A stretch of 64,000 bases of DNA, from the IMG/VR virus record IMGVR_UViG_3300008111_001458. One strand, written 5' to 3'. The notes below the pieces were generated by a model. It had not been told where the DNA came from, searched no databases, and worked only from the letters and a program-made list of their open reading frames with translations. Every line of letters starts with the position of its first letter. Positions within the stretch are counted from its first letter, which is position 1. Shown here piece after piece: positions 4,240-64,000 of the stretch. The translations under genes and the position numbers were made by a program. The stretch is from a virus (Duplodnaviria > Heunggongvirae > Uroviricota > Caudoviricetes).

Positions 4240-4243
4240 AGAA

Positions 4244-37131: not shown

Positions 37132-37133
37132 AT

Positions 37134-38020: not shown

Positions 38021-38950
38021 ATGCAACCAGTACAAATAGCTATGTCGGGAGTTACTCCCGGAACTTATGGAAACAACACCCAGATTCCTTCTTTCACAGT
38101 TGATGCTAGAGGTAGACTAGTATGGGCTGCAAATGTTGATATTCAATCAACATTTAAATTTAAGGTTAATGATGACGATAGAATTGAAACCGTTAATTTA
38201 AGTAATGATTCATTCAATTTTAGAAGTGGACATGGAATCAATATAACACCGGCACCAGACGGAATTAATATTGATTTTGATAGATCAATAATTCCCGATA
38301 CTAGTGACTTTGTTAGAAAATCAGAAACATCTCATCAATTTTTAGGATCTATAAGATCTCCGTTAATTTATTCTCAAGAAGGAATATTTGATTCAGTTAC
38401 TACAAAAGAAATATTAATAGATGGTGTATATACTAGATTTCAAACAAAAGGGTTCCATGTAGATTTTACAGACTTTGATGTTCTTGATTCTAAAGTTTTT
38501 CAAATCGATGGAATTTCAAAAAATACTAATACTGAAACAGCAAATTTTAATGTTGATATTACATCTTCTTGGTTAAAATTCACCAGTCAAATTGAACTTC
38601 CTAATTCTGCTTTAAGTTTTCCAGATGGCCATGCTTTGGGAATTATTTCTTTTCAAGATGGCGGAATTGAAATGGGATATGGTGCAGGATTAATTGCTAT
38701 CAAAAATTTTAATAATGATGGATCTTCACCGACAGGAATTTGCGTTATTACTTCAAATGGGAAAGATGATATTTTTGAAAATCCAACAAAGTTTAACTTT
38801 GGTGGCGACGGAGTATTTGAAGCACCAATTTTAAAAACAAAAAGCTATACAAGTTTGCCAGATAATCCCAAAGAAGGTTGGATAGTATTTGATGGCAACA
38901 ACAAACAATTTAAAGGGTGGAACGGAACTAGTTGGATAACTTTAGGATAA
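38021..38950 (+). CDS. Hypothetical protein, possibly structural; last + strand gene before the strand switch
   Basis: 309-aa ORF. It overlaps a convergent minus-strand gene by 23 nt. Confidence 0.4.
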   Translation: MQPVQIAMSGVTPGTYGNNTQIPSFTVDARGRLVWAANVDIQSTFKFKVNDDDRIETVNLSNDSFNFRSGHGINITPAPDGINIDFDRSIIPDTSDFVRKSETSHQFLGSIRSPLIYSQEGIFDSVTTKEILIDGVYTRFQTKGFHVDFTDFDVLDSKVFQIDGISKNTNTETANFNVDITSSWLKFTSQIELPNSALSFPDGHALGIISFQDGGIEMGYGAGLIAIKNFNNDGSSPTGICVITSNGKDDIFENPTKFNFGGDGVFEAPILKTKSYTSLPDNPKEGWIVFDGNNKQFKGWNGTSWITLG

Positions 38951-40484
38951 GAGGTTTAAAATAATCTCTTATTATTGTTTCTTTAAACATTTCTGTAAAA
39001 TTAATAGACTTAATTAAATTTTGATATTCTTTATCTGTTAAATCTAAATTTTTTTCTCTATTGCTTAGTCTACTATCATTAAAACTACTAATATAAAAAT
39101 CTCCTCGATACGGCTTATTCTTCAATGTAGAATTTAATTCTTGCGAAAGTAATTCGGCCTGTTCGTAGCTGTTTATATCAGTATCATCATCTTTTCTCCA
39201 ACTAAAGAAATTTATATCGGGATTAGGAAAATAATAACCATACTTTGAATAATTGCGATCAATTTCACTCATATACATGTATTTCATAATATTGTGATTA
39301 CCAATAATACTTAAAGGAAATGTGTTAGCTAAATCTATTGGGCAATCTTTTCTTTTAAAAAATTCAACAGCCTTATAAATTGTATCTGTACTTTCGTAAG
39401 GTAAACCTATAATAATCCCCGAAGCAATGTAACTTCGATCTCCCCAAATTTCTTTACACTGATAGATAGTATCTATTAATCTTTCACTAGCCATCCCCTT
39501 ACCAATAAACTTTGCAGTTTTTGGATTAAATGTTTCTAGACCAAAGTAAGTTTCTGCTATACCGGCATCTTTTAGTAATTGTATTTGCTCTGGGTGTGCC
39601 GCTAATAAATCTGCTCTTAGATAACACCAAAATTTTAATTCAAAAGGCAAACTCTGACTAACATCTGCAAACATCTGCATCTTTTCTGTACTATCATTAA
39701 ACGTATCATCAACAATAAAATATTTTGTTGTTCCCCATTGTTCATAATTTTCTAAGAGTTCTCTACGTATAACATCAGCTTGTTTAAGATAGTTGACTGT
39801 TTTCTGTCCTATCAAAGGATACGAGCAATAGGCACATTTAAATTTACAACCTCTGCTGACTTCTAAATTTAAAGTTTCTTGAGGTTGTATTAAATCCCAG
39901 GACGTATATGAAGTAGTACTTAATTTAAAATCCCATGTTGGATTGTGCGCCTTACGATCATGATCTATAATTCTATTAAATATCCTTTTTGTTTTTCCCG
40001 ACAGAGAATCTAACAAATCAATAGTTTCAGTTTCTCCTAATCCGACTATAACATAATCTGTAGGAGCATTAAGATAAAAATCAATCCTTGCACCACCCAA
40101 CATTGTTTTTGTTTTTAAATTACATTGTTTGACATAATCGATCCAGGGTTTATAATTATCTCGAGCAAACTCAGTAACTAAACTTGGAATCTCAAATCGT
40201 TCTTTATCTGTTCCTGTTCCTTCTCCCGGATTACTGGTTCTAACACCAATATCAGGAAACTTAAAAGGCATCCATGTTGTACTATAGCCAACTAGTAATG
40301 TGTTTGGTCCAATTGCTTTATCTAATATTTCAGTGTATATTTCCCAAGTAACAAGAGAGCTAAAATTAATTACTAAACAGCTATAACCATAATTGCGTAT
40401 ATGACTGGCTAATCTGTGTACACCATAACCTCTAGATTTAATATTAAATTCTACAGTGTCAGTAAAAAGAATAACATCAAACAT
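38928..40484 (-). CDS. B12-binding (class B) radical-SAM protein, paralog 1
   Basis: N-terminal cobalamin-binding Rossmann-like domain (MFDVILFTDT...GYSCLVINFSS), then a radical-SAM core with LEVSRGCKFKCAYCSYP (CxxxCxxC). Confidence 0.7.
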   Translation of the reverse strand: MFDVILFTDTVEFNIKSRGYGVHRLASHIRNYGYSCLVINFSSLVTWEIYTEILDKAIGPNTLLVGYSTTWMPFKFPDIGVRTSNPGEGTGTDKERFEIPSLVTEFARDNYKPWIDYVKQCNLKTKTMLGGARIDFYLNAPTDYVIVGLGETETIDLLDSLSGKTKRIFNRIIDHDRKAHNPTWDFKLSTTSYTSWDLIQPQETLNLEVSRGCKFKCAYCSYPLIGQKTVNYLKQADVIRRELLENYEQWGTTKYFIVDDTFNDSTEKMQMFADVSQSLPFELKFWCYLRADLLAAHPEQIQLLKDAGIAETYFGLETFNPKTAKFIGKGMASERLIDTIYQCKEIWGDRSYIASGIIIGLPYESTDTIYKAVEFFKRKDCPIDLANTFPLSIIGNHNIMKYMYMSEIDRNYSKYGYYFPNPDINFFSWRKDDDTDINSYEQAELLSQELNSTLKNKPYRGDFYISSFNDSRLSNREKNLDLTDKEYQNLIKSINFTEMFKETIIRDYFKPLILKLSN

Positions 40485-42087
40485 TTTTATTTTTAAGATA
40501 GTTTAACAACGGTTGAAAATATTCTTTATTGGTATGATCATAAAACAGTTGATTAAAGTCTATAGAATTTATTAAATTATTATATTCTATCTTTGGCATA
40601 TCGATAGTAAACTCTCTATTTCCAAGTATTGGATGATTGAAAGAACTAACATAAAAATCTCCCTGACGTATTCTTTGATATGATGCTAATTCTTTAGTGG
40701 TAATGTCGGCTATTTCTTGTGCTTGATAAAAATTTTTAATATCGGTATCATCTTTCTCCCAATATAACATTCCGTCTACTCCGTCCTTAGGAAATTGATA
40801 TCCAAACTTTTCGTAGTTTTCGTCAAACCAACTAGTAGGGAACCATTTATTTCTATCGGTTTTTTTAATTATATTGAGAGGATATACTGTCGAAATATCT
40901 AGCGGACAATCTCTACGCTTTAACCAATCAACGGTTTCTCTCCAACTAGCCTGGGTTTCGTGAGGAAGGCCAATCATAAAACCCCCTTCTAACCATACTC
41001 GATCACCCCACACTTCTTTTGCTCTATATAAAGTATCCTTACGGCGACTTGATGGCATTCCCTTACCAATAGTTTTTGAGCTCTTGTCATTAAAAGTTTC
41101 AAGACCAAAAAATGTTTCTGCTATGCCTATTTCTTTTAACAGTTCCATCTGTTCGGGATGTGCGGCTAATAGATCAACTCGGGTATAACACCAAAATTTA
41201 ATTTTAAAAGGCAAGTCGCTCATTACCTTGGCCAACATTTCTAATTTTTCAGTGCTGTCATTAAATGTATCATCCACAATAAAATACTTAGTAGTACCCC
41301 AAAGTTCGTAATTTTTTAACAACTCGTCACGAATAATAGTTGGATATTTTAAATAATCATTGACATTTTTTTGACCAATAAGAGGAAAGTTGCAGAACGA
41401 ACATTTAAATCTACATCCGCGACCTACTTCTAAGTTAAGAGTTTCTTGAGGTTGTATAAAATCATATTCTGTGTATTGTGTGCTACTTTCTCTAAAATCC
41501 CATGTAGGAGCATGAGCTTTTCTATCGTGATCGATATATTTTCCAAATATGCGTTTTGTTTTTCCCGATAGTCGATCTAATAAATCAATAGTTTCAGTTT
41601 CGGCAATTCCAAAAATAACATGATCTATATTTTTTAGATCCATATAAAAATCTGCTTTTGCACCACCTAATACAATTTTTAATTTTGAATTAATTGTTTT
41701 AGGATATAACAACCATTCTTCAACTTCATTCTTTCCAAATTTAACCACTAAATTATCTTTTCTCCAATCGTGCATCTCTGACTTTAAATGACTTAATTCA
41801 TGTTGTTCCCCAATATGGTGTCCGGGAATCTGATTGGTAAATTCTCCTGGTTTTTCCGGCCATCTATAAGGTAACCAAGTTGTACTAAAACCAACCATAA
41901 GAGTTTCTGGTCCCACTGAATTATCAATAATTTCTTTATATCTATCAAATGTTAGTGCCGAACTAAAATCAATGACAAGACAAGAGTAACCATTTGTTCT
42001 AATTTGACTAGCAATTCTATGCACACCATAACCTCTAATTTTATGATGAGGATAGGGAGCATCGGTAAATAGTATGACATTAAACAT
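40477..42087 (-). CDS. B12-binding radical-SAM protein, paralog 2 (tandem duplicate of 38928-40484)
   Basis: MFNVILFTDAPYPHHKIRGYGVHRIASQIRTNGYSCLVIDFSS ... LEVGRGCRFKCSFCNFP, collinear with paralog 1. Confidence 0.7.
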   Translation of the reverse strand: MFNVILFTDAPYPHHKIRGYGVHRIASQIRTNGYSCLVIDFSSALTFDRYKEIIDNSVGPETLMVGFSTTWLPYRWPEKPGEFTNQIPGHHIGEQHELSHLKSEMHDWRKDNLVVKFGKNEVEEWLLYPKTINSKLKIVLGGAKADFYMDLKNIDHVIFGIAETETIDLLDRLSGKTKRIFGKYIDHDRKAHAPTWDFRESSTQYTEYDFIQPQETLNLEVGRGCRFKCSFCNFPLIGQKNVNDYLKYPTIIRDELLKNYELWGTTKYFIVDDTFNDSTEKLEMLAKVMSDLPFKIKFWCYTRVDLLAAHPEQMELLKEIGIAETFFGLETFNDKSSKTIGKGMPSSRRKDTLYRAKEVWGDRVWLEGGFMIGLPHETQASWRETVDWLKRRDCPLDISTVYPLNIIKKTDRNKWFPTSWFDENYEKFGYQFPKDGVDGMLYWEKDDTDIKNFYQAQEIADITTKELASYQRIRQGDFYVSSFNHPILGNREFTIDMPKIEYNNLINSIDFNQLFYDHTNKEYFQPLLNYLKNKNV

Positions 42088-42110
42088 CTAGTTATTTAAG
42101 TGAGATATCT

Positions 42111-42797
42111 ATGGTAAAAAAATTTAATTCAGTTCTAGCATTTGGAGATAGTCATGTTGCTGGATGTGAATTATCAAATCAATATACTTTTGAAGATTAT
42201 ACCAGAGGTAAAATAACAATAGAACAAGCAGATGATTCTGGAAAAAAATTAGCCTTTCCTCAAGTGGTTGCTGATAAATTAAATATTCCTTGTTATAATT
42301 ATGCAATGACTGGCGGAAGTAATGCTCGTAGTCTAAGATTATTAGTCAACGCATTACAAGAACATCCAAATAGTTTAGTATTGTTTGGGTATACATGTAC
42401 AGATAGAACAGAATTTTACTATCCAGACGTTGGCAATTTCTTAGGTAGAGATAAAGATAAATTCATACAAGTTGGTATGCAATGGAAAGGTAAGGTTGAT
42501 GGAACCATGATTCATCCAATTAACGATCTGTTTGTTAATGAAATGCTTCGTCCTTATAATAATTTAAATGAATTAATGTTTATAGTAGATAATTTATGTA
42601 CAGGATGGGCTACTGATTTTTTACATTTACCGTTGTTTCCAGAAATTATACCAAAGGTAGATAATGTTTTTAATTTTGAAAGTTGTGAGAATTATGTAAA
42701 TTGGTGTGAATTCAAAATGTATAAAAAATTACCATTTTATCATTACGATCAAGAAGCACATAATAATTTGGCTAGATTAATTCTTGAGGAGTTATAA
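42111..42797 (+). CDS. SGNH/GDSL-family hydrolase
   Basis: N-terminal block VLAFGDSHVAG (GDS-H). Confidence 0.5.
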   Translation: MVKKFNSVLAFGDSHVAGCELSNQYTFEDYTRGKITIEQADDSGKKLAFPQVVADKLNIPCYNYAMTGGSNARSLRLLVNALQEHPNSLVLFGYTCTDRTEFYYPDVGNFLGRDKDKFIQVGMQWKGKVDGTMIHPINDLFVNEMLRPYNNLNELMFIVDNLCTGWATDFLHLPLFPEIIPKVDNVFNFESCENYVNWCEFKMYKKLPFYHYDQEAHNNLARLILEEL

Positions 42798-43150
42798 TGT
42801 CTTGGGGTTATCATATTATGTTAGATTGTGCCGGTTGTGATTTAAAAAAAATTAAAGATAAAGATCACATATGGGCATTTGTATATACATTAATAAAACG
42901 TGTTGAAATGGAAGCGCACGGAAAAATGATCATTGAAAATTTATTACCAGGAACAGACAATGAAGGATATAGTGTATTACAAATGATTACTACAAGTAAT
43001 ATAAATTGTCATTTTGTAAACAAGACTGCTGATGCTTATATTGATTTGTTTAGCTGTAAAGAATTTAAAGCAGAAATAGTTATTGCTACTGTTAAAGAAT
43101 TTTTTAATCCAACCAGCATCAAATTAAACTTTGTAGAAAGACAGGCTTAG
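42797..43150 (+). CDS. speD: S-adenosylmethionine decarboxylase proenzyme, small bacterial pyruvoyl type (SpeD/SpeH-like)
   Basis: HIMLDCAGCD...IKDKDHIWAFVYT ... SNINCHFVNKTADAYIDLFSCKEF parallels B. subtilis SpeD (HVISELWGCD...ESHLTIHTWPE...AAIDVFTCG). Confidence 0.55.
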   Translation: MSWGYHIMLDCAGCDLKKIKDKDHIWAFVYTLIKRVEMEAHGKMIIENLLPGTDNEGYSVLQMITTSNINCHFVNKTADAYIDLFSCKEFKAEIVIATVKEFFNPTSIKLNFVERQA

Positions 43151-44226
43151 GGATCTATCCTCATATCCTCTCTGCTACGAAATCTATAACGTTCCGGAAC
43201 GGTGTCATATAATATCATATTCTTGTTTACAGCCGCGTCACGTAGCATGATTTGATGTAGAAAATTACTAATAGGTTTATTAGGTACAAAGTCACACCAC
43301 GGACCACATCGTAGCTCTTCCATATCAATGGTTTTAGGATCGCTCCATTGTATTAATCTATGTGTGATACCGTTAATCTTAACCATATAATGATACAGAT
43401 TATCATCTGCAGGTATCTTTTCCCATGTCCATCCTTTGCTGTCTACATAGTCCTTAATTGCTTTTACATGGTCACTAAGATAATAACGAGGTTCATCCGG
43501 GTTGCGACCAATGTCGCTGCCAGCACGTACACGATACTGTAAGGCATTATTTCCTAGTTTTTGTATTTCTTCTAGTACTTCTGGAATGTGATTTAAGTTT
43601 TCTAATGTATAACCTACGTAGTAAACAACAATGCCAGCAGCCTTACAATTCTCAATACCTTGTAACTGTTTTTGATGTACAGTATCACCTTGGTACGAAT
43701 GATGGTTAAGTCCTACCATCACAGCACGACATCCAGCCTTGGCTATTTCTTCAGTCCACTGCTTATCAGCGAGCTTAACACCATTAGTTAAAATTGTAAT
43801 ATCCTGGTGTGTTCTGCCTAGGCGAGTTTGTACATGTCTGATGTTTCTAATTAGTTCAGGTAAGTCTTTACGTAGTGTAGGTTCAGCACCTGCAAGGATA
43901 ACGCTACCAGCATCTTCAGGCCAACTTTCAATTTGTTGAAGTATTAATCCTAAGGGTTTGTCTGTTGTTGCATTTTCTGGTTCATGATAACAGTGCGGGC
44001 ATTTTAAATTACAGCGATCTGTAACTTCAATCATAATACCACTGGGCACATCGTATCCGTACGGATCAAATTCTAAACTCTTATAAAAGTCTGAATCGCG
44101 TTCTATCATATATTCACTATAACCGTGCTCCGGACACTCTTTACTCATCCACACGCTACCATCTCGTATAAACTTTTTAGCAGAAACGTGTCTATAACAA
44201 TGTTCGCATAAACTTATTGTGTCCAT
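43147..44226 (-). CDS. Radical-SAM protein with N-terminal Cys-rich (zinc-ribbon-like) extension
   Basis: VTDRCNLKCPHCYHEP CxxxCxxC. Additional Cys pairs at the N- and C-termini. Confidence 0.6.
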   Translation of the reverse strand: MDTISLCEHCYRHVSAKKFIRDGSVWMSKECPEHGYSEYMIERDSDFYKSLEFDPYGYDVPSGIMIEVTDRCNLKCPHCYHEPENATTDKPLGLILQQIESWPEDAGSVILAGAEPTLRKDLPELIRNIRHVQTRLGRTHQDITILTNGVKLADKQWTEEIAKAGCRAVMVGLNHHSYQGDTVHQKQLQGIENCKAAGIVVYYVGYTLENLNHIPEVLEEIQKLGNNALQYRVRAGSDIGRNPDEPRYYLSDHVKAIKDYVDSKGWTWEKIPADDNLYHYMVKINGITHRLIQWSDPKTIDMEELRCGPWCDFVPNKPISNFLHQIMLRDAAVNKNMILYDTVPERYRFRSREDMRIDP

Positions 44227-44759
44227 CTATCTACCTTTGATAATTGATCTAAAAATATATTTTTATTAAGTTTCCAGAACGTTTGTTTATGACCTCTATA
44301 ATTATGATCAAACGCTCTGGTCAGCACTCCTGTAGATTCTAATGTGGGCCCCCATATTGTATGAACTAATCTTTGTGTGCCAACTTCGCTTTCGTGACTA
44401 GTAATATACATATCATGATTGCCTACCCATTCAATACAAGTGGGCATAAAAAACTGTGCAGTAATATGTTGATGATTTTTAATTTGATTAATTGTTCTTA
44501 AAGTTATTTTAGGTAAGTGATTGGTTAATACACATGTTCTAGCACAAATCCTATATCCAAGATCGTCTAAAGTATGTGCCGCCACAGATCCAACGGGGTG
44601 GTCATTATAATATAATATCCAGATGTTCCAACGTACTTCATTTTTAAAACAATCGATCATTGCTGCTTGACTTGAGTTATTTACGAAACCTCTAGATTTT
44701 GCCTCGGCATAAAATTCAGTAAGATCTAAATCTTCCGACCATGGAACTATTTTATACAT
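44214..44759 (-). CDS. Hypothetical protein
   Basis: 181-aa ORF. Confidence 0.4.
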   Translation of the reverse strand: MYKIVPWSEDLDLTEFYAEAKSRGFVNNSSQAAMIDCFKNEVRWNIWILYYNDHPVGSVAAHTLDDLGYRICARTCVLTNHLPKITLRTINQIKNHQHITAQFFMPTCIEWVGNHDMYITSHESEVGTQRLVHTIWGPTLESTGVLTRAFDHNYRGHKQTFWKLNKNIFLDQLSKVDRWTQ

Positions 44760-45451: not shown

Positions 45452-45459
45452 GAAAAATA

Positions 45460-46825: not shown

Positions 46826-47073
46826 TCTTTTTCTTTTTCTATCATCATTAACACAAAGGTATTAATATTTTTCCAAGATTTAATAAATTCTTCGTTATTA
46901 TCTAACCATTGTTTAAATTCATCACTTTCTAAATAATCTTTATAATCTACATGGTCAATGTTTTTTATAAATTTGCTAATGCTATACATAATATCAGCCG
47001 GAGTATCCATTTCGTTTGTCATTGCAATTATGTTATAAATTTCTTCTTGAAGATTATTCATAAGAATTAACAA
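46816..47073 (-). CDS. Hypothetical small acidic protein
   Basis: 85-aa ORF. Confidence 0.35.
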   Translation of the reverse strand: MLILMNNLQEEIYNIIAMTNEMDTPADIMYSISKFIKNIDHVDYKDYLESDEFKQWLDNNEEFIKSWKNINTFVLMMIEKEKDYL

Positions 47074-53090: not shown

Positions 53091-53107
53091 AAGTCTATAA
53101 ATACCGC

Positions 53108-57407: not shown

Positions 57408-57823
57408 GTTTCTAAAATCTCTTTTAAATATTCTTCACTCCAGTGCGTATAATAACTAGATTTAGATAATTTATCTCTCGCTTTATTCAGTTCGTCTCTC
57501 CACTGGCACAGAATTAAATTGTGTTCTCCATTATTAGTTTGTATACCATTAATGTAGGTTATTCTATTTTTAGGATCTGGTAAGAAAACCATCTCTGGAT
57601 AAATGCTGTTATATTCTTTCGCAATTTTAAATATTTCTTCTTCGGAATAGTCATTCGGTAATTTATAAATGATGAGCTCAAAATTCCAAGGAGGTGGATC
57701 GATATCTGATCCATCAGTTTCAATAATTTCATACTTAGAACCTTTAGCATACGGACAAATGCTAAATCCACCAAGTTCATCTCTAGGTTGGGTAATACGA
57801 TCAATCCAATTGTCAATATCCAT
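57404..57823 (-). CDS. Hypothetical protein
   Basis: 139-aa ORF. Confidence 0.4.
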   Translation of the reverse strand: MDIDNWIDRITQPRDELGGFSICPYAKGSKYEIIETDGSDIDPPPWNFELIIYKLPNDYSEEEIFKIAKEYNSIYPEMVFLPDPKNRITYINGIQTNNGEHNLILCQWRDELNKARDKLSKSSYYTHWSEEYLKEILET

Positions 57824-58430
57824 TTTGTACCGTTATACTTGAAATAAAGTTTCTACCATTGATACTCTGTAAAATTAAATCAACAGTCTTTGTAAGATCT
57901 TCAATTGTAATTATGCTATTGGTATCCATTACCTTATTATATAATTCTATACCATTCTGATTTTCTGTGTCATAGGGATTATAAAAATTAGTTTGACAAA
58001 CACCTGGCATAATAACTATGCTTTTACATTTACTACCGCTATGATTTATATCCCAGCTGACTTTATTAATAGCATATTTTTCTTCTCCGTAGTTTTTAAG
58101 CCATGGAAAATTTTTAGGTATATCTGCTAATGGTTCTGCAGCTATAGAACTTGTACTTATAATAAAATGAGGATCATTCCAATGTTGTTGGTGCCATAAT
58201 TTCATTAGTTCTACTTGAGAATAATAATGATAGGCATTATTGATAAACAAATCACAATCTTTTGTATAAGAAATAATAATATCTTGATTAGATCTATCAC
58301 CGATATCGAAACCGTTGTCTTTGCTAAATCCTTTAACTCTACAATTTAAATTAAGAAAATAATCATATAATCCTTTGCCAATCCCGCTGGTATGACCAGT
58401 AATTGCTATATTATTAAATTTCATAAACAT
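57813..58430 (-). CDS. Short-chain dehydrogenase/reductase (SDR)
   Basis: N-terminal ITGHTSGIGKGL (TGxxxGIG) Rossmann motif. Confidence 0.55.
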   Translation of the reverse strand: MFMKFNNIAITGHTSGIGKGLYDYFLNLNCRVKGFSKDNGFDIGDRSNQDIIISYTKDCDLFINNAYHYYSQVELMKLWHQQHWNDPHFIISTSSIAAEPLADIPKNFPWLKNYGEEKYAINKVSWDINHSGSKCKSIVIMPGVCQTNFYNPYDTENQNGIELYNKVMDTNSIITIEDLTKTVDLILQSINGRNFISSITVQNGY

Positions 58431-58959
58431 CTTCCTTAAGAAGTTCTAATAACACAACAACTCTAGGAGATGATGTGTGATTCCAAACCGAATGAGGAGT
58501 TTCTACATCTAATAAAAAACATTCCCCCTCGAACCATCTTCCTCGATAATCTCCTTCTGAGAATCCGACATCTCCGAGAGGAATAATTAGAGGAACGTGA
58601 CAAATAACATAATTTTCGTGACCTTCTTCTGTATCAGTGTGCATCGGAACAACTCCGCCTGCGTCTAAAACACTGTAACCTGCACTACGACAAGTATCAC
58701 CAAAACTTTTAACTAGTTCAGTTAATATTGGGTATCGAGATAAATTTTTATCTTCCCATTTGCCCATAATTTTAATTACAAGCATTTTCCATTTATTTTG
58801 AGGATCTAAACTGTTTCCAATATATTCGCTGTAGAGGGGAATGTTACCAGTATCGTAACCGTGAACAGTCACAAATTCATTTTTTAATTTTGGTATAAAT
58901 TTATTAATTTTATCTTTAAAAATAAATTTGTTTATGTCATAGATCATTCCACTCTCCAT
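58414..58959 (-). CDS. Aspartyl/asparaginyl beta-hydroxylase-like cupin
   Basis: VVPMHTDTEEGHENYV ... HSVWNHTSSPRVVV resembles the Asp/Asn beta-hydroxylase family. Confidence 0.45.
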   Translation of the reverse strand: MESGMIYDINKFIFKDKINKFIPKLKNEFVTVHGYDTGNIPLYSEYIGNSLDPQNKWKMLVIKIMGKWEDKNLSRYPILTELVKSFGDTCRSAGYSVLDAGGVVPMHTDTEEGHENYVICHVPLIIPLGDVGFSEGDYRGRWFEGECFLLDVETPHSVWNHTSSPRVVVLLELLKEDVYEI

Positions 58960-60271
58960 CCATGTGCCACGAAGGAAGTGAATCTTTATAAATCTCCGAT
59001 GCCTTATTTACAGTAACAATAATGGCATTGGGATTATATTCTTTAATTTTTTTGAACAATAGATTCTCATTATATATTCTGTGTCTTAATGGAACAAAAG
59101 GTGCTACGGGATCGTAATTAAAAATATGACTAAGATGCACAATAGTAGAAGGCACTGCATCTAGCCAATCGCTTACTTCGAGATTTTTGTTAAGAACTAA
59201 ATCTTGATGAGAAAATTCGAATTTAACGACTTTACTAATGTCACTCCAAATTACAGGATCAATCCGTTGTTCAACACCAGTTAACGTTATCCACTCTTGT
59301 TTTTTATTTTTTAAAAAACTTGATCTTTTATTAACATACGTTTTTACAAATTCTAAATAATTCAACCCGTCCCAATTCTTTATAATATATTCCATACACT
59401 CTAAAGCAAACAAATTATAATCTACAAAACGAACAACGGTATTTTTATCATATCCATATTCTAAAAGATATTCTATAAACTGCAATCCACTTGCTTGAAT
59501 TACTAATTGTTGTATTGGTGTACTACAATTAATTTTTATAACTTCTTCTGTATTGTAAGGATAGAATAATGTTTGTGAGGCAACCTCGTTTTTGCCGTAT
59601 AGATAATCGCACGATTTTATAAACGCAGGTTCATAATTAGGATAATAGTATCTTTTGTTTTTTCTGAAACGATCTGCAAATGGTTTCACAAATTTATTAT
59701 TAGCAAACGCAACACTAAGAATGTTCCAGCCGTGCCATTTGTGTTTATATTGACGTTCGGTATCGCCACCGGTTACCCAGATAGGAGTATAATCGTCGTG
59801 AATATTTTCTTCACTGCGTCTGGGTGCTATCTGTGTATGAGCTGAATAATATTCAAATTTTCCTATAACAGGACAACCTAATTCTTTGTAAGTTTTTAGA
59901 TTGATTATGTAGCATTGTTCGTGTAATTCATAATAACCATCATCCCTATCTGGTATATGACCCCAGATAAAAAATTCTTTGCCGCTGTAGACTTCCTTTT
60001 CGACTTCATGGAAAAATTCATCACCGTTGATGAACTCTGTGCCTGTACTTAATACAACTGCATGTGTATATTCTTTGGCGGCTTCTTGTAACATAGCATC
60101 TTCATCTAATCCTTGAATAATATTAAATCCGTGACCAAGAATCTTACTAAGAACATAATCCGACATGTTCCTCATCAATTCGGCAGTCCATTTAGTTTGG
60201 CACTGACTAATTCTGTCCAAAAATATATAGACTATATCTGAAGATCCTTCGGGTGTATTAAATTTTACCAT
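58937..60271 (-). CDS. Hypothetical protein
   Basis: 444-aa ORF. Confidence 0.4.
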   Translation of the reverse strand: MVKFNTPEGSSDIVYIFLDRISQCQTKWTAELMRNMSDYVLSKILGHGFNIIQGLDEDAMLQEAAKEYTHAVVLSTGTEFINGDEFFHEVEKEVYSGKEFFIWGHIPDRDDGYYELHEQCYIINLKTYKELGCPVIGKFEYYSAHTQIAPRRSEENIHDDYTPIWVTGGDTERQYKHKWHGWNILSVAFANNKFVKPFADRFRKNKRYYYPNYEPAFIKSCDYLYGKNEVASQTLFYPYNTEEVIKINCSTPIQQLVIQASGLQFIEYLLEYGYDKNTVVRFVDYNLFALECMEYIIKNWDGLNYLEFVKTYVNKRSSFLKNKKQEWITLTGVEQRIDPVIWSDISKVVKFEFSHQDLVLNKNLEVSDWLDAVPSTIVHLSHIFNYDPVAPFVPLRHRIYNENLLFKKIKEYNPNAIIVTVNKASEIYKDSLPSWHMDGEWNDL

Positions 60272-60737
60272 ATTGATTATTATAACATCTTACTAACATT
60301 TCACAAAACTCGGCAGTTCTATGTCCCAATATAATGTTAGCAATCATATGCACTCTTGGTTTACTGCTACGATTAAAAACGGCATGTTTTTTGCTTATAT
60401 TGATCATAATTATCTTTCCTTCTTTCCAAGGAACTTTCTTATCTTCTATAAACATCTCGCAATTATTTGGATGAGCTATAGCAATATTAATTGGTAGAAT
60501 AGATAATAATGGATCCATATCCAGTGGAATCTCGCCGTCGGTGTGCCAGTTTATATTACTCCATCCGTGTAAACAACAACCGCTCCATCCTTCGCTATAT
60601 CCTTCTCTATATTCTTGATAATGAGGCTCTGCTTCTAATGCCTGTTGTTTCCAGATATCTGCATTAAAAGAAATATCTAATTCTAACCAAGGTATATCTG
60701 ATCTTAATATTTTACGTGCTTGTTCTATGCTATCCAT
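60258..60737 (-). CDS. Cupin-like hydroxylase (related to 58414-58959)
   Basis: NWHTDGE ... HAVFNRSSKPRVHMI parallels the previous cupin. Confidence 0.4.
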   Translation of the reverse strand: MDSIEQARKILRSDIPWLELDISFNADIWKQQALEAEPHYQEYREGYSEGWSGCCLHGWSNINWHTDGEIPLDMDPLLSILPINIAIAHPNNCEMFIEDKKVPWKEGKIIMINISKKHAVFNRSSKPRVHMIANIILGHRTAEFCEMLVRCYNNQYGKI

Positions 60738-61303
60738 GATTTAAAAATTTCTAAAGATTCTGCTATTGTTAGTCCCGCTTCTGGATTCTCTTTCCTACTA
60801 ATGTCACAACTAATTAACCAACGCGGTTCCCAAACATTATTGTGAATGTTATGTGGAATGCCAGTTTGCACGATTGTAGGCCATTTAACCACGTGAGAAT
60901 ATAAATGATTAACTTGGTTAGGGTGGTATTGTATGTAAGGTGTACCTGCTTGGGTATCCGTAGTTTCAAATGGTTGCTCGCCCTCTTTAAGTTTGTACCA
61001 ATGCATCATACTACCAGCACCCTGTACACACCAATTCATAACAGCACGGTCTGCGTCAGGAGAATGTCCGTCAATGTGTATACCGCATTGCTTGCCTTTA
61101 GGTGTGTAAAAAATAAGAGGAGGATAAGTTATTACTAATCCTAAACTATCAAGCCAGGATCGAAACTCATCAGATACGTCACTATGATTAGCAAACCATA
61201 TTTCTGTTTGGTCGCCTGTTTGATTTAATATAGCAGGGTTTACTAACGGATGAGATATCGGTATAGATAAATCGATAGCATAATTAGTGTTCACTTTTGC
61301 CAT
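60725..61303 (-). CDS. Cupin / 2OG-Fe(II)-oxygenase-like protein
   Basis: CGIHIDGH (H-x-D) ... IPHNIHN candidate facial triad. Confidence 0.4.
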   Translation of the reverse strand: MAKVNTNYAIDLSIPISHPLVNPAILNQTGDQTEIWFANHSDVSDEFRSWLDSLGLVITYPPLIFYTPKGKQCGIHIDGHSPDADRAVMNWCVQGAGSMMHWYKLKEGEQPFETTDTQAGTPYIQYHPNQVNHLYSHVVKWPTIVQTGIPHNIHNNVWEPRWLISCDISRKENPEAGLTIAESLEIFKSWIA

Positions 61304-61854
61304 CCAAAGAAATTAAACATATATTTTGTTTCAAGTCCCATATTCAGTCCGCCATGCCAATTTTGCCAATCATCCCAACGATAAACATCTCCTTGTTTAG
61401 GATCGTATATAGCATGATTTTCAATTATTGATACCTGACCAAAGCTAGGCTCGCATATATAGCAAGTATAATGAACAATTGGTCCTTTTGATAACCATTC
61501 TTTTTCCTGGTTGGGCATCTTATAATCGGGATGCCAAGGAACTATATACCCTGGAGGAACGGCACTAACCCAACAGCCTGCAGGTTCACAATTTATCCAT
61601 TTAGAAAAATTTTCAACCCATACATTAGAAAAATGCTCATAAGGCAAATAATCAATCCATTTTGCTGCGGCATTATTTTTATCATAACCTGCATTTTCCC
61701 AAATCTTAATTAGTTTTTCTACTTTGGGATTTCCTAAATGTATATCATCTTCCTGATCGTTTCCTCTTAATCTAGGAGGTATTAATTTAAGATGATTTAT
61801 TAAATCTTCCCATTTCATTGTTTTATTTGAATTTCCAATGTATGTGGCCATCAC
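61291..61854 (-). CDS. Hypothetical protein, paralog of 61851-62396
   Basis: Shares the C-terminal block Y-x-WD-x5-H-G-G-x-N-x-GL-x4-MF-x-F-x-G. Confidence 0.4.
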   Translation of the reverse strand: MMATYIGNSNKTMKWEDLINHLKLIPPRLRGNDQEDDIHLGNPKVEKLIKIWENAGYDKNNAAAKWIDYLPYEHFSNVWVENFSKWINCEPAGCWVSAVPPGYIVPWHPDYKMPNQEKEWLSKGPIVHYTCYICEPSFGQVSIIENHAIYDPKQGDVYRWDDWQNWHGGLNMGLETKYMFNFFGWQK

Positions 61855-62396
61855 TTTATTCCTAAAAAATGAAACATAAATTGATCATGGAGCCCGCAGT
61901 TACCACCTGCATGATAATCTAAGTAATGGTCCCACTGATATGTATTACCAGAAAGTTCGCAATGAAAACATTGATTTTTACAAACAAAAACTCCTCCCGG
62001 ATAAGGGTGACTGATAAAAGTACTGAACCGAATTACTTCTCCCTGAGATAGATATTCTTCAATGTTATCATCGATGTCTTGATGTATTGGAGCATATTTT
62101 CCTGGACGTATTTTACTAATCCATGCTCTAGCACATTTCATTCCAACAAATTTTTCAAATTCTATAACACACGAATTATCAAAATGTTTTATAGGATAAT
62201 AATTAAACCACTCAACAGTGTCAACTTTATTATAGCCCGCATCAATCAACATTTGGATGTTATTGTCAAATCGACCATCAAAGTTCTTATAAAAGTCTAC
62301 ACCAAACGCTCTCCGATCGCCTTCTTCAATACATAAAGAGTCAATTATACTATCCCATTTTCCTGCAAAAAAATTACCTATAAACTTAATTGACAT
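61851..62396 (-). CDS. Hypothetical protein, paralog of 61291-61854 (possible metal site HQDIDD)
   Basis: APIHQDIDD ... WDHYLDYHAGGNCGLHDQFMFHFLG. Confidence 0.4.
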   Translation of the reverse strand: MSIKFIGNFFAGKWDSIIDSLCIEEGDRRAFGVDFYKNFDGRFDNNIQMLIDAGYNKVDTVEWFNYYPIKHFDNSCVIEFEKFVGMKCARAWISKIRPGKYAPIHQDIDDNIEEYLSQGEVIRFSTFISHPYPGGVFVCKNQCFHCELSGNTYQWDHYLDYHAGGNCGLHDQFMFHFLGIK

Positions 62397-62413
62397 TTAA
62401 TCCTCATATCTTA

Positions 62414-62941
62414 TTACATATTCTTTAAATTTATTATCTTCTGATCATTAAATGCATAAATTGGGTAATCTTTTAATATCTTAGGATATATTTTTTCCCC
62501 AGTTATCTCTTTTGCAATATAAAAAGAATCTTGATCGTAATGAGGAGTTAATAAAACATTATATCTTTCCGGACTTTTAGGATATGTGAAGTCAATAGTT
62601 ATATCATGATGAGCATCGACCGGACCTGTTTGAAGATATAGGCCTCCCCCGATAATTTGTTTAAATGGCAAAGATTCTAAAATTTCTATTAATTCTGGCA
62701 TTAATTCTTTGATTCCGGGTCGATAGTAAGTTGGATCGTTATCGGTGAGATCTTGAAGTTTATCTTCTGTAAAAATTTGAGAAGCATCTCTCCAATCGGT
62801 CACTGCCTTTCTAACAACTAATGGACATAATAAAGCATTAGGTATAATATTTTTATCCAAATAATTCTTCTTAACATATTCTATGAGTAAATCTTGATCA
62901 GGAATTTTACATTTAATATCAATGGGAGTGTATATTATCAT
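62414..62941 (-). CDS. Hypothetical protein
   Basis: 175-aa ORF. Confidence 0.35.
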   Translation of the reverse strand: MIIYTPIDIKCKIPDQDLLIEYVKKNYLDKNIIPNALLCPLVVRKAVTDWRDASQIFTEDKLQDLTDNDPTYYRPGIKELMPELIEILESLPFKQIIGGGLYLQTGPVDAHHDITIDFTYPKSPERYNVLLTPHYDQDSFYIAKEITGEKIYPKILKDYPIYAFNDQKIINLKNM

Positions 62942-63675
62942 AATAATTCAAAGTTTTCTGGAAGCATTTTATTAAGTGTGTCTTTAGATTCTTTTTCGAT
63001 ATTAAATTTAACAAATGTTTTCCCATACTCAAACTTATTTATAAGCCCACTCTTATCAAAATGATTTAATAACGGACTTAATTTCTCATCAAAAATAAAC
63101 CTCGCATGTTCGTCAGTAATATCATTAAACTTAATGCATACCGGAACGCTGTTTTTAAGAATATTGTTTTTTAATAACTGTCTAACAACTAATTGTATTC
63201 TTGTGACTCGTCCAACATTCATCGCTGTATGCCTAATCCCGGCATTCATGTTGTACCAAAATCCGTCTGTTGTTAACTTATACAACACGTTGTTTTCTAA
63301 ATCTATCAAAAACGATTCATCAGAACATAAATTTAGATGATACCGATCATCTATATCAGCGTGTCCCTGGTAACATTTACCAGGTTCTAAAATTATTATC
63401 CTAGCTTCACCGATCGGTTCATTGATTGTTTTTAAAATAGATTCCCAAATAGTATTTTTAAATTCCTCTTTAATTTTCCAAGGATCATAAAAGAAAGAAT
63501 CTGTTGGTTGATTGATTGTATATCTAAAGTTATCACTGGGAATTTCTTTCAATGCAATTTCGATTAAATCTAAAGAAACTTGATAGTTAGTTTTTGTTAA
63601 CATGAAATATTTATATGCTACTATAACCCAGTTAAATAGTTCATGAACTATAATCATAATACATTTTGTATGCAT
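62938..63675 (-). CDS. Cupin-like protein
   Basis: CYQGHADIDD ... IRHTAMNVG candidate HxD...H. Confidence 0.4.
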   Translation of the reverse strand: MHTKCIMIIVHELFNWVIVAYKYFMLTKTNYQVSLDLIEIALKEIPSDNFRYTINQPTDSFFYDPWKIKEEFKNTIWESILKTINEPIGEARIIILEPGKCYQGHADIDDRYHLNLCSDESFLIDLENNVLYKLTTDGFWYNMNAGIRHTAMNVGRVTRIQLVVRQLLKNNILKNSVPVCIKFNDITDEHARFIFDEKLSPLLNHFDKSGLINKFEYGKTFVKFNIEKESKDTLNKMLPENFELL

Positions 63676-64000
63676 CCTTTTACAGGATTAGCAACACGTG
63701 AAGACGGCGCAATTAAAGTTTGTTGTCGCAGTTATCCTATTGGATTTATACAAGATGCTTCTTTAGAAGATCATTGGAATAATGATACTATGAGACGCAT
63801 TCGTAAACAAGTTTTAAACGGAGAACGTCCTCCGGAGTGTGAACCTTGTTTTAGTTTAGAAGATCAAGGGGTTGAAAGTTTAAGACAGCGACACATTAAA
63901 GGAGAAATTCCAGAAGCACGTATTAATCTTTATCCTAATTCATTAAAGAAAATGGATCAAGATTTTACAATGCCTTTCGAAATTCCAACAATAGAGATTA
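63671..64000 (+). CDS. Cys-rich protein, 5' fragment (continues past the window end); possibly SPASM-like or a radical-SAM partner
   Basis: MHPFTGLATREDGAIKVCCRSYPIG ... PPECEPCFSLED. Open to the window edge. Confidence 0.3.

Follow-up and report, generated by a model that had tools for sequence, protein, structure and literature searches.

A radical-SAM-rich gene island with a virus-specific core in a jumbo phage: a candidate tailoring pathway for an amine- or guanidino-bearing metabolite

The closest precedent for the gene island described here is the radical-SAM/amidinotransferase module of the Campylobacter phages CP220 and CPt10, an analogous module that is interchangeable and thought to be non-essential (PMC2853527). 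In CP220, it is surrounded by two NDP-sugar transferases and a PAP2 phosphatase. Pelagimyophages carry radical-SAM cassettes within a host-recognition cluster (PMC7029224), and purified virions of cyanophage S-SCSM2R were found to contain both an amidinotransferase and a prolyl hydroxylase (PMC12801897); in this phage, many glycosyltransferases lie near the related module. Similarly, a GT2 gene lies near the related module of L034, one of the viral loci compared here. At the protein level, CP220 gp086 is 28% identical to the amidinotransferase g54883 of the present island (genes are named by their lower coordinate), while gp080, gp083, and gp084 are 22-26% identical to the radical-SAM protein g50820.

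We analyzed a 64,000-nucleotide window of a jumbo phage (contig of at least 212 kb), the host of which is probably a betaproteobacterium. The island starts at position 38,928, runs beyond the window end, and totals ~31.5 kb with about 40 genes, 11 of them radical-SAM; the ~6.4 kb past the window end hold 4 further radical-SAM genes and a PIG-L deacetylase. The island proposed in the first-pass annotation is real, and larger than it was said to be. Consistent with the strand switch reported there at ~38.9 kb, ORFs lie on the plus strand up to 38,950 and mostly on the minus strand thereafter; at the same point, the GC skew flips sign and GC content changes from ~0.37 to ~0.32. Neighboring island genes overlap by 4-40 nt, which suggests that they are organized in operons. 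Building on the observed gene content, family and fold assignments, linkage, and virus restriction, we tentatively interpret the region as one functionally linked accessory island encoding enzymes that act in the cytoplasm to tailor a metabolite or glycan precursor bearing an amine or guanidino group, and give this explanation as a whole a probability of about 0.45.

The core of the island consists of g43147, g44214, g44747, g45460, and g46250, which occur together in 19-22 of 22 related viral loci, a set comprising the loci with a g43147 homologue of 40-87% identity. The radical-SAM protein g43147 (43147-44226, minus strand; PF23545 and PF04055) is present in all 22 and has 1,568 homologue clusters, all environmental; its best NCBIfam matches, TrsS and Tes, are sub-threshold. 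Its start is overlapped by a gene for a GNAT-fold acyltransferase (g44214, 44214-44759, minus), followed by one for a kinase-like-fold protein (g44747, 44747-45451, minus; 21 of 22 loci), the family profile of which matches TTK kinase (E 8e-6) over the catalytic-loop/DFG region. A distant paralogue of the latter (hhalign 98%) is encoded by g46250 (46250-46825, plus; 19 of 22 loci). In g44747, the HxD..N and DFG positions are substituted, and both kinase-fold proteins lack the catalytic residues. The most conserved protein of the island, g45460 (45460-46263, plus), probably adopts an Fe(II)/2OG-oxygenase (DSBH) fold, judging from a low-confidence structural model (pLDDT 58). These last four core genes are adjacent to g43147 in 19-21 of the 22 loci, the exceptions being loci truncated by contig ends. 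The amidinotransferase g54883, the GNAT-fold protein, both kinase-fold proteins, and the oxygenase-like g45460 had not been included in the first-pass annotation.

Adjacency of the core persists down to 40-50% protein identity, and the same enzyme families recur around it in lineages with different gene order. B12-type radical-SAM genes accompany the core in 15 of 22 loci, and SPASM-type radical-SAM genes, here located beyond the window, directly adjoin it in 9-12 distant loci. PHROGs contain no core-gene family, GenBank phages yielded no close homologue of g45460, g54883, and two flanking genes, and the core was matched only once among 185,579 cellular genomes; the core is virus-specific. As the core genes are not unlinked insertions in the relatives but stay adjacent, the earlier claim of a linked multi-step system rather than scattered auxiliary genes holds.

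The synteny comparison also showed that the cassettes surrounding the conserved core vary. Close relatives truly differ in part of the island, so that individual genes may fall outside any one shared pathway, and phage genes may also be linked through common expression timing or by sitting at a permissive insertion site. The island could in principle be hypervariable, an insertion-tolerant accessory site where auxiliary genes unrelated to one another gathered without a common pathway. Auxiliary genes are indeed abundant across the whole window (PstS, OprP, DnaK, Hsp20, ClpP, heme oxygenase/FDBR, AhpC), the stretch from g46250 to g53108 is not the same in close relatives, indels at 60.2-63.8 kb distinguish assemblies of the same phage, TokK-like and g50820-like genes are found in other contexts, and the CP220/CPt10 module is interchangeable (PMC2853527). 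However, this is rather improbable given five genes that are adjacent even in distant relatives, the recurrence of the same families despite rearrangement, a gene fusion joining two families (g58937-type and AspH), and core genes that are virus-specific rather than host-derived.

As called in the first-pass annotation, six complete radical-SAM proteins are encoded in the window, each with one CxxxCxxC motif and a near full-length PF04055 match; their cores are more than bare cysteine motifs. Four of them had been labeled B12-binding class-B paralogs, which overstates the evidence. Of the four, g47054 alone reaches the Pfam threshold for B12-binding (34.9 vs 32.1). The tandem paralogues g38928 (38928-40484, minus; PF04055 E 1.2e-16, CxxxCxxC at residue 213) and g40477 (40477-42087, minus; E 5.2e-16), which share 53% identity, have a class-B-like N-terminal Rossmann domain without a Pfam B12 match that aligns with the TokK-type domain by profile-profile comparison only (hhalign 96.6%, E 4.8e-10). 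A third member of this family, g55920 (55920-57407, minus; PF04055 E 7.6e-12), scores 20.4 bits for B12-binding, below the cut-off, and is 27-28% identical to the pair, whereas g47054 is only ~21% identical to the three. The better conserved tandem member, g40477, has homologues of 77-88% identity in 11 related loci, and orthologues of g55920 (40-56% identity) adjoin the core in L024 and L031-L034.

The NCBIfam matches of g38928, all sub-threshold, were TIGR04072, PhpK, and HpnJ. TIGR04072 (lipid-biosynthesis B12 radical-SAM), HpnJ/HpnR, and tetraether synthase Tes were the best, likewise sub-threshold, matches pointing to remodeling of host membrane lipids or LPS, in which lipid tails would be methylated or joined by C-C coupling and lipid A hydroxylated. 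Tes is also among the PDB matches of the SPASM-type radical-SAM proteins, SGNH-type hydrolases are present, and the lipid A hydroxylase LpxO belongs to PF05118, a family represented in the island. Nevertheless, these scores lie 4-8 times below the family cut-offs, the island proteins all lack transmembrane or clearly hydrophobic stretches, and an amidinotransferase, a transaminase, and SpeD do not fit. The lipid product considered in the first-pass annotation is therefore not supported, and we regard it as quite improbable.

Between the core and g53108 lies the most variable part of the island. The TokK/CysS-family cobalamin radical-SAM C-methyltransferase g47054 (47054-48847, minus) matches TokK (7kdx, E 8e-72) over residues 22-483 and CysS with E 6e-47, but reaches only 177 bits against the KedN5 subfamily model (cut-off 700). 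Together with an acidic, cysteine-free and cassette-specific 85-aa ORF (g46816, 46816-47073, minus) and a 417-aa protein (g48840, 48840-50093, minus), it forms a block found in none of the 22 related loci. Its homologues (44-50% identity) sit in quite different contexts, next to NDP-sugar epimerase/dehydratase genes; in L006, both such a gene and FolE adjoin the TokK-like gene. The remaining slot (50081-53090), each gene of which occurs in only 2-6 of 22 loci, encodes a GDS-motif hydrolase (50081-50833), a radical-SAM protein (g50820, 50820-51881), a SAM methyltransferase (51865-52503), and a 2OG-FeII_Oxy_5 oxygenase (52488-53090), all on the minus strand; Pfam supports the last three, so that the earlier call of a SAM methyltransferase holds. 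Of the two radical-SAM proteins said to have Cys-rich C-termini, g50820 does (CxxC..CC..CxxxC), but g43147 has only two C-terminal cysteines and is instead distinguished by an N-terminal HMPTM-type Zn ribbon (PF23545).

B12 and SPASM radical-SAM enzymes, 2OG hydroxylases, and a SAM methyltransferase are a mixture resembling proteusin clusters, in which a ribosomal peptide is C-methylated, cross-linked, and hydroxylated (polytheonamide-type), and sub-threshold matches to RiPP C-methyltransferase and ApyD models were obtained. Yet the genes abut or overlap and leave almost no intergenic space, and hence no room for an unannotated precursor. The only small ORFs, g46816 and a 52-aa ORF beyond the island, have no homologue in related loci, Pfam scans of the island proteins and the region beyond the window found no PqqD/RRE domain, leader peptidase, or transporter, and RiPP clusters do not typically contain an amidinotransferase, a transaminase, SpeD, or PIG-L. 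A RiPP, also raised in the first-pass annotation, is accordingly a very improbable product.

Hypermodification of phage DNA or of tRNA/rRNA would likewise draw on several of these families: the known phage pathways for thymidine hypermodification use kinases, PLP enzymes, radical-SAM enzymes, and acyltransferases together, and the pairing of radical-SAM and GNAT recalls Elp3. CP220-type phages contain modified guanine and a QueD gene near their radical-SAM module, and FolE is a neighbor in L006. However, the kinase-fold proteins lack catalytic residues, g43147 has no Elp3-type match in NCBIfam, and no aGPT-Pplase, DpdA/TGT, or base-hydroxymethylase family was found by Pfam among the island proteins, the scans upstream covering 38 of the window ORFs, leaving little probability for a nucleic-acid substrate.

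A small-molecule pathway is supported by the amidinotransferase, the omega-type transaminase, SpeD, the TokK/CysS-type methyltransferase, and the PIG-L deacetylase. The amidinotransferase g54883 (54883-55923, minus; pentein superfamily), present in 11 of 22 loci, has HsvA as its closest solved relative (5wpi, E 5e-29); its profile also matches StrB1 (1bwd, E 3.7e-27), SxtG, and AGAT, with catalytic Cys330 (GIHCLTLD) and the H204-I-D206 motif aligned and invariant. HsvA belongs to the hsv operon, which directs the synthesis of phevamine A, a spermidine-containing metabolite (PMC6187163). The class-III aminotransferase (53737-54921, plus; 14 of 22 loci) was correctly called earlier (PF00202, E 2.4e-40), with omega-, putrescine, GABA, and acetylornithine transaminases as its closest relatives of solved structure. 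The SpeD-like call was likewise borne out by a pyruvoyl decarboxylase (42797-43150, plus; PF02675, 64.7 bits). Found in 9 of 22 loci, the latter is an accessory gene outside the core; SAM, arginine, or ornithine could be its substrate, in line with phage SpeD homologues being possible AdoMetDC, ADC, or ODC (PMC9992855, PMC10407285). Next to it, a putative SGNH/GDSL-type hydrolase (42111-42797, plus; 12 of 22 loci) carries the GDS motif AFGDSH. Of the two GDSL hydrolases annotated, both thus have the motif but no Pfam match.

From these families, we infer a single shared substrate, a substrate class, and an order of steps. The soluble island enzymes would act in the cytoplasm during infection on an amine-bearing small molecule or nucleotide-sugar/glycan precursor, with polyamine-, guanidino-, or aminosugar-like compounds as candidates. 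Decarboxylation or transamination would produce amines, which would then be amidinated and N-acylated; 2OG oxygenases may hydroxylate the carbon skeleton, and radical-SAM enzymes may methylate or rearrange unactivated carbons, with exchangeable cassettes such as the TokK-like, presumably iterative C-methyltransferase added on top of the core. The location of related modules in isolated phages among sugar-handling genes is consistent with this proposal. On the other hand, NCBIfam matches, all far below curated cut-offs, tie no island enzyme to a named substrate, no scaffold-forming enzyme (glycosyltransferase, cyclitol synthase, NRPS, PKS, or ATP-grasp ligase) was found in the window, and several large proteins (g48840, g58937, and the 287-aa protein encoded beyond the window) carry no family assignment. 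As stated in the first-pass annotation, the product cannot be named from sequence.

Several oxygenase-like genes lie between 53,108 and 63,675. Besides an HxD..H cupin-like protein (g53108, 53108-53740, plus; 12 of 22 loci), two Asp/Asn-beta-hydroxylase-type oxygenases (58414-58959 and g60258, 60258-60737, both minus) exceed the threshold, and g62938 matches PF05118 weakly, in agreement with the earlier assignment of such proteins. Five small HxD..H proteins follow on the minus strand (g60725, g61291, g61851, g62414, and g62938; 60725-63675), putatively cupin/2OG-oxygenase-like; g61291 and g61851 are paralogues (hhalign 99.4%), and 9 distant loci have homologues of g61291, g61851, and g62938 next to the core. 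Of the "at least eight" cupin-like proteins counted earlier, three are supported by Pfam (with weak support for a fourth) and one by a fold search on a low-confidence model, the others by the HxD...H motif only. The two AspH-type genes flank g58937 (58937-60271, minus), which encodes a 444-aa protein of a family with 479 representative clusters and no match in Pfam, PDB, or PHROG. Among 36 diverse, distant homologues, 8 are fused to PF05118, the AspH domain encoded on either side of g58937 here, which supports a functional link. At lower coordinates, within 57404-58959 on the minus strand, lie a 139-aa protein (phrog_10325, a family without assigned function) and a 205-aa SDR-like protein, for which the TGxxxGIG (TGxxxGxG) and YxxxK motifs are visible by eye but the Pfam match is weak (E 0.005).

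One alternative reading is protein modification, in which phage structural proteins (tail fiber or receptor-binding) or host proteins would receive hydroxyl, methyl, acyl, and amidino groups. Hydroxylation of Asp/Asn residues in proteins is the best-known activity of PF05118, of which the island has three to four copies. Proteins with kinase or GNAT folds classically modify other proteins, and peptides are common substrates of SPASM-type radical-SAM enzymes; together with AspH-type proteins, these families are as typical of protein modification as of the metabolite pathway that we favor. The fusions of g58937-type proteins to AspH may point to a substrate-docking domain. The radical-SAM cassettes in the pelagimyophage host-recognition cluster (PMC7029224) and the modifying enzymes in S-SCSM2R virions (PMC12801897) point the same way. 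Moreover, the island abuts a putative tail-fiber-like gene (g38021, 38021-38950, plus), the last plus-strand gene ahead of it, and an Mtd_N/PTL_trimer gene borders L047, which is distantly related to the island. However, the tail-fiber reading of g38021 stems from motifs seen by eye; this gene has weak PHROG matches to families without assigned function and none in GenBank phages. Furthermore, co-variation with the island was seen for no candidate substrate protein, and HsvA/StrB1/AGAT-type amidinotransferases, omega-transaminases, SpeD, and PIG-L are small-molecule enzymes. We therefore consider protein modification unlikely, though the likeliest of the alternatives to the tailoring of an amine- or guanidino-bearing metabolite.

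Finally, the Cys-rich partial ORF noted earlier at the window edge lies on the plus strand (63643 to the end at 64000) and is the N-terminus of a seventh radical-SAM protein, with an N-terminal SPASM/twitch-type Cys cluster. The full gene and those following it are visible in L038-L040, where the region beyond the window encodes a radical-SAM protein of 284/305 aa, the PIG-L deacetylase, a 287-aa protein, and radical-SAM proteins of 432, 351, and 328 aa. Compared with other assemblies of the same phage, g60258 is ~56 aa shorter in the window.

The island begins where the ORFs change strand. Nearly all ORFs lie on the plus strand up to 38,950 and mostly on the minus strand from 38,928 onwards, and the sign of the GC skew flips at the same place, confirming the strand switch that the first-pass annotation had placed at 38.9 kb. 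GC content drops from a mean of ~0.37 in 1-38000 to ~0.32 in 38001-64000; it is lowest (0.285) at 48-50 kb, in a strain-specific cassette. Past the window end, the island continues for ~6.4 kb with four more radical-SAM genes, a PIG-L deacetylase and a 287-aa protein. What had been read as a partial Cys-rich ORF at the window edge lies on the plus strand from 63,643 and proves to be the beginning of a seventh radical-SAM gene, bringing the total to 11 in ~31.5 kb. This extension had been missed, as had the amidinotransferase g54883, the kinase-fold proteins g44747 and g46250, and the oxygenase-like g45460 (genes are named by their start coordinate in the window). Scans for promoters (116 versus 110 ± 11) and terminators (9 versus 7.8 ± 3) returned chance levels, so operon boundaries were not drawn from them. 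A repeat search returned only a tandem paralogue pair and no repeats flanking the cassettes.

The reported abundance of radical-SAM proteins was borne out. Each of the six complete proteins in the window carries one CxxxCxxC motif and a PF04055 match covering nearly the whole 166-position model (46-70 bits, cut-off 29.5). The sequences of g43147 (43147-44226), g50820 and proteins past the window end show GGEP- or GDP-type motifs. The claim of four B12-binding paralogues holds for g47054 only, which reaches the class B (cobalamin-domain) level with 34.9 bits against PF02310 (cut-off 32.1). This protein matched TokK (E 8e-72) over residues 22-483, spanning both the cobalamin domain and the radical-SAM core, as well as CysS (E 6e-47). 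Enzymes of the TokK/CysS type build alkyl branches by repeated methylation. Membership of g47054 in the KedN5 subfamily (NF033712) was rejected (176.8 bits, cut-off 700), leaving it a homologue. The other three proteins (g38928, g40477 and g55920) are paralogues of one another and constitute a family apart from g47054 (53% and 27-28% identity); Pfam detected no B12 domain in the first two and a sub-threshold one in g55920 (20.4 bits versus 32.1), and a PDB profile search with the family matched the radical-SAM core only. When their N-terminal domain was compared with the TokK-like family by hhalign, columns 1-453 aligned with 96.6% probability (E 4.8e-10). By this profile-profile comparison, the only method to detect the similarity, the domain is putatively of the TokK-like cobalamin type.

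Cys-rich C-termini had been ascribed to two further radical-SAM proteins. They are present in g50820 (CxxC, CC and CxxxC), whereas g43147 is instead marked by an HMPTM-type Zn ribbon at its N-terminus. Neither protein matched the SPASM domain PF13186. Radical SAMs of 394-432 aa past the window showed weak precomputed SPASM matches, and a homologue in the distantly related viral locus L034 carries SPASM at its N-terminus (E 4.8e-9). PDB profile searches with the small radical-SAM families gave generic matches only (NifB, BlsE, SkfB, Tes, MoaA and viperin). Among the radical SAMs, the aminotransferase and three further proteins, none reached a curated NCBIfam cut-off, and substrates are therefore not named; the best partial matches (ladderane lipid, PhpK, HpnJ, TrsS and Tes) were all below cut-off and were not used for assignment. 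A RiPP cluster, one of the products first considered for these enzymes, is barely credible: no conserved small ORF that could serve as a precursor, no RRE and no PqqD match were found among the island proteins, and the island leaves no space for a precursor or an RRE. Separately, two IMG/VR contigs of 180 and 60 kb (L036 and L037, 8327-20900) carry four g50820-type paralogues (29-39% identity) within 12 kb but without the rest of the island. This locus is another viral radical-SAM expansion.

The assignable enzymes without radical chemistry share a predicted preference for amines. Pfam matches upheld the SpeD-family decarboxylase, the SAM methyltransferase and the class-III aminotransferase of the earlier reading. 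The first of these, g42797, matched PF02675 with 64.7 bits (cut-off 25), and the substrate of phage SpeD-family pyruvoyl decarboxylases may be SAM, arginine or ornithine, a choice not readable from sequence (PMC9992855). The aminotransferase g53737 is a transaminase of the omega type. The family profile of g54883 matched HsvA (E 5e-29) and StrB1 (3.7e-27) in two stretches, and also SxtG and AGAT, while Pfam PF02274 gave no match to this protein at an E of 0.01 or better. An invariant C330 in GIHCLTLD aligns with HCATLD, and an invariant H204-I-D206 with HID/HVD, which identifies g54883 as a predicted pentein-type amidinotransferase with conserved catalytic Cys and His. HsvA, its closest solved relative, is encoded in the hsv operon for phevamine A, which is reported to include a modified spermidine (PMC6187163). 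The product of g44214 has a GNAT fold typical of acyltransferases.

Considering these enzymes together, we favour a tailoring pathway acting on an amine-bearing small molecule or on a nucleotide-sugar or glycan precursor, to which we assign a probability of roughly 45%. The amine steps would comprise a pyruvoyl decarboxylase, an omega-type transaminase, an amidinotransferase, an enzyme of N-acyltransferase fold and a PIG-L-type N-deacetylase, and hydroxylases and C-H-functionalising radical-SAM enzymes would act around them. We infer one substrate common to the island enzymes, and likewise the order of the steps. Transmembrane segments are absent from all island proteins, which places the chemistry in the cytoplasm. 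Remodelling of lipids or LPS, which would revive the lipid pathway proposed earlier, is decidedly improbable given that no membrane proteins were found in the island. We give equally little credence to hypermodification of nucleic acids, as its hallmark enzymes were not found among the island proteins.

Oxygenase-like proteins form the second large group. At least eight cupin, 2OG-oxygenase or Asp-beta-hydroxylase-like proteins had been counted; Pfam substantiated a 2OG-FeII_Oxy_5 oxygenase and two Asp/Asn-beta-hydroxylase (AspH)-type oxygenases, plus one weak match, whereas most of the others, like the SDR and the two GDSL hydrolases, were recognisable by short motifs only. Fe(II)/2OG oxygenases were thereby assigned to g52488 (PF13759, 59.5 bits), g58414 (PF05118, 77.5 bits) and g60258 (PF05118, 41.7 bits). 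Five or six small proteins carry an HxD..H motif and are putatively 2OG-oxygenase-like; hhalign linked only three pairs among them, and a shared origin of all the supposed cupins is therefore not supported. The most conserved island protein is g45460, in which H-x-D and H residues are invariant and whose homologues show identities as high as 79-88% over hundreds of clusters. Its AF2 model (pLDDT 58) matched the fold of Fe(II)/2OG oxygenases only, which makes it a putative member of that class, as a low-confidence lead. PDB profile searches with g45460, g44214 and the 444-aa protein g58937 returned nothing usable.

Two AspH-type genes flank g58937 in the window. Among 36 diverse homologues, eight (P0393 and seven others) have the g58937-type domain fused C-terminally to an AspH domain. 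The near-invariant positions of this domain (GH..D, H.Q, H and R..K...Y) suggest a catalytic or metal site. The distant paralogues g44747 and g46250 have a protein-kinase-like fold (similarity to TTK, E 8e-6), but other residues stand in place of the catalytic-loop Asp/Asn and the DFG Asp, the alignment showing K-x-S-x-x-P-S-S and N-Y-F at these sites. Both have the kinase fold but are probably not kinases. The window differs from further assemblies of this phage (99.7-100% identical) by indels of ~70-170 nt at 60152-60563, 62435-62529 and 63719-63798, which cluster among the arrayed small HxD..H genes. Two proteins are consequently smaller in the window than in those assemblies: g60258 (159 aa versus 215 aa) and g62414 (175 aa versus 214 aa).

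AspH-type oxygenases, SPASM enzymes and proteins of kinase or GNAT fold typically modify other proteins. Together with the putative tail-fibre genes that adjoin the island, and the detection of similar enzymes in cyanophage virions (PMC12801897), they make the modification of proteins such as tail fibres the strongest rival to a pathway on an amine or sugar precursor, albeit one that we consider unlikely.

To compare the island among viruses, we collected 22 viral loci with a g43147 homologue (40-87% identity) and scored every island family within 10 kb. Five genes form a conserved core: the Zn-ribbon radical SAM g43147 (22/22), the oxygenase-like g45460 and the kinase-fold g44747 (21/22 each), the GNAT protein g44214 (20/22) and the second kinase-fold protein g46250 (19/22), the misses being due to loci cut by contig ends. 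Frequent companions were the class-B-like radical SAMs (15/22), the aminotransferase (14/22), the GDS-motif hydrolase g42111 and the HxD..H protein g53108 (12/22 each), and the amidinotransferase (11/22). In more distant lineages, SPASM-type radical SAMs and small HxD..H proteins stand directly beside the core, while this phage has them at the island's far end; the families thus recur, but gene order differs. Adjoining island genes overlap by a few bases, and these short overlaps, together with the fusions of g58937-type and AspH domains, support coupling. The comparison supports the view of the first-pass annotation that the island is a linked multi-enzyme system rather than a set of scattered genes. 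That unrelated auxiliary genes merely accumulated here is improbable, since both the conserved core and the gene fusion contradict it.

Outside the core, gene content is in part variable. The slot between g46250 and g53108 differs among close relatives, and the cassette g46816-g47054-g48840 occurs in none of the 22 related viral loci. The island thus consists of a conserved core and exchangeable tailoring cassettes. TokK-like radical SAMs 44-50% identical to g47054 were also observed in a different conserved block of other IMG/VR loci (L006-L011, e.g. L006 2935-9280), along with an NDP-sugar epimerase/dehydratase, a small g61851-like protein (cupin), GTP cyclohydrolase I (FolE) and two further proteins.

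Homologues of the core proteins form hundreds to more than 1000 clusters in metagenomes, with 954 for g45460, 1,568 for g43147 and 703 for g44214, and searches with g45460, g44214 and g43147 retrieved unnamed environmental proteins only. The core proteins have no PHROG; among ten island proteins compared with PHROGs, only g57404 matched a family, one without a named function. GenBank phages yielded no nucleotide match to the island and no protein match to g45460, to the flanking plus-strand gene product g38021 or to g23073. Among 185,579 bacterial and archaeal genomes scanned with g45460, the only match was a contig (L045, JBDNIA010000100.1; 71% identity), a 4.6-kb sequence in a Crocinitomicaceae MAG that is probably viral and mis-binned. 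The lack of PHROG and GenBank phage matches and the single cellular match thus indicate that the core is virus-specific and not host-derived; it is widespread in environmental metagenomes, with next to no presence in cellular genomes or in any cultured phage.

Most auxiliary genes of phages are single enzymes of host origin that enhance a pathway the host already has. Here, ~40 linked genes including 11 radical-SAM enzymes have been kept together across viral lineages with only 40-50% protein identity. Together with the strong conservation of the core proteins and their near absence from cells and cultured phages, this points to a chemistry evolved and needed by the phages themselves. A bolder version of this idea, which we regard as possible but doubtful, is a virus-exclusive biosynthetic supercluster, marked by the five-gene core, with which lytic jumbo phages would make a heavily C-methylated, hydroxylated and amidinated amine-type metabolite or place such a modification on a glycan. 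If true, this would be a natural-product-scale pathway of viral origin and upkeep, rather than a loan from a host.

The closest precedent is the radical-SAM/amidinotransferase module of the Campylobacter phages CP220 and CPt10 (Firehammervirus), an interchangeable and still unexplained module with five radical-SAM genes and a putative glycine amidinotransferase, in genomes with 11 and 12 radical-SAM genes in total, respectively (Timms et al. 2010, PMC2853527). Defined by gene content alone (at least five radical SAMs and a pentein amidinotransferase in a large myovirus-type genome), a CP220-type module is also present here, with 11 radical SAMs and g54883 in ~31.5 kb. CP220 gp086 is 28% identical to g54883, gp081 matches a 284-aa radical SAM past the window, and gp080, gp083 and gp084 are 22-29% identical to g50820 and to a 351-aa radical SAM past the window. 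Unlike the island, CP220 showed no five-gene core, class-B-type radical SAMs, class-III aminotransferase, SpeD or array of 2OG-oxygenase-like proteins, and the hosts and habitats differ. Sugar-handling genes lie near related modules, namely NDP-sugar transferases and a PAP2 phosphatase in CP220, in contrast to the island, many glycosyltransferases in cyanophage S-SCSM2R and a GT2 in L034.

In aquatic T4-like myophages (cyanomyophages and pelagimyophages), hypervariable regions encode 2OG oxygenases, SpeD and radical-SAM cassettes (PMC7029224). The amidinotransferase, radical-SAM and aminotransferase genes of S-SCSM2R were described as antibiotic-synthesis genes by the authors of its study (PMC12801897). 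Like the island, these phages have AT-rich accessory regions by tail-fibre genes, with multiple 2OG-Fe(II) oxygenases, Asp/Asn beta-hydroxylases, speD, radical-SAM cassettes, amidinotransferases and aminotransferases. However, such genes are fewer in them and interleaved with glycosyltransferases and photosynthesis genes, and the density of radical SAMs in the island (eleven in ~31.5 kb) is far higher. Neither the five-gene core, nor class-B-like radical SAMs, nor such gene density was seen in CP220/CPt10, the T4-like myophages or S-SCSM2R.

Among bacterial pathways, g47054 matches TokK/ThnK/CysS, but the island has no carbapenem or cystobactamid pathway genes; g47054 sits in the strain-specific cassette and its homologues elsewhere adjoin the NDP-sugar epimerase/dehydratase. 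The phevamine pathway uses the amidinotransferase HsvA, and aminoglycoside/streptidine pathways use StrB1, class-III aminotransferases, PIG-L, GenK/GenD1, BtrN/AprD4 and APH and AAC folds. Like such loci, the island combines an amidinotransferase, an omega-transaminase, a PIG-L deacetylase, a putative SDR, radical SAMs of B12 and candidate SPASM/twitch type, and folds of the kinase-like and GNAT kinds. Unlike aminoglycoside loci, it has no 2-deoxy-scyllo-inosose or inositol-phosphate synthase and no ATP-grasp ligase, and its kinase folds lack the catalytic residues; Pfam found no cyclitol synthase or glycosyltransferase in the island within the window, with GT2 in L034 only. The likeness to these pathways holds at the family level only. 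The TokK-like methyltransferase, the HsvA-like amidinotransferase and the Zn-ribbon radical SAM offer starting points for enzymology, and the system might account for the multi-radical-SAM modules described from Campylobacter phages in 2010. Should its product be a small molecule or a surface modification, this would matter for competition in natural waters, both between phage and host and among phages.

The window is rich in AT and virus-like in sequence. The same gene order and identical proteins recur on many metagenome contigs, one of 211,818 bp, and the samples with this phage include JGI 3300008110 and 3300008448 and ENA ERZ27248008. The IMG/VR viral contigs with related loci reach 270 kb, and the metagenome contigs that encode homologous proteins reach ~379 kb. 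The element is therefore a jumbo phage. A tmRNA at 4209-4669 on the plus strand is of the permuted betaproteobacterial type (Rfam beta_tmRNA 135.9 bits, cut-off 84; permuted tmRNA 152.6 bits), with an ARAGORN tag of ANDNAFDFTAMSFTGNTVANDSKFALAA. Its type points to a betaproteobacterial host, and the host is probably a betaproteobacterium. The plus-strand arm also carries auxiliary genes for a ribonucleotide reductase, a cell-wall hydrolase and a GMP-reductase/IMPDH-type enzyme.

At 20818-22036 on the plus strand, a heme oxygenase gene (PF01126) overlaps that of a ferredoxin-dependent bilin reductase (PF05996, E 3.5e-16), forming a bilin-synthesis pair; the host of this phage is probably not a cyanobacterium. 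A link between the island and bilins or tetrapyrroles, suggested by this upstream pair and a weak Fe_bilin_red match of g57404, found no support in the paper on the pre-PcyA cluster and was dropped. The segment 6284-9919 (plus strand) encodes an AhpC peroxiredoxin and an AhpD-like CMD protein; after them come PstS and a phosphate-selective OprP porin. An oprP gene has also been reported from freshwater amoC-phages of Nitrosomonadaceae (bioRxiv 10.64898/2026.06.18.733297). Finally, a proteostasis and translation set at 17713-20191 and 36574-37352 (plus strand) consists of DnaK, Hsp20, ClpP and an IF-1/eIF-1A-like protein, and the phage DnaK shares at most 69% identity with DnaK genes from phage-collection records.
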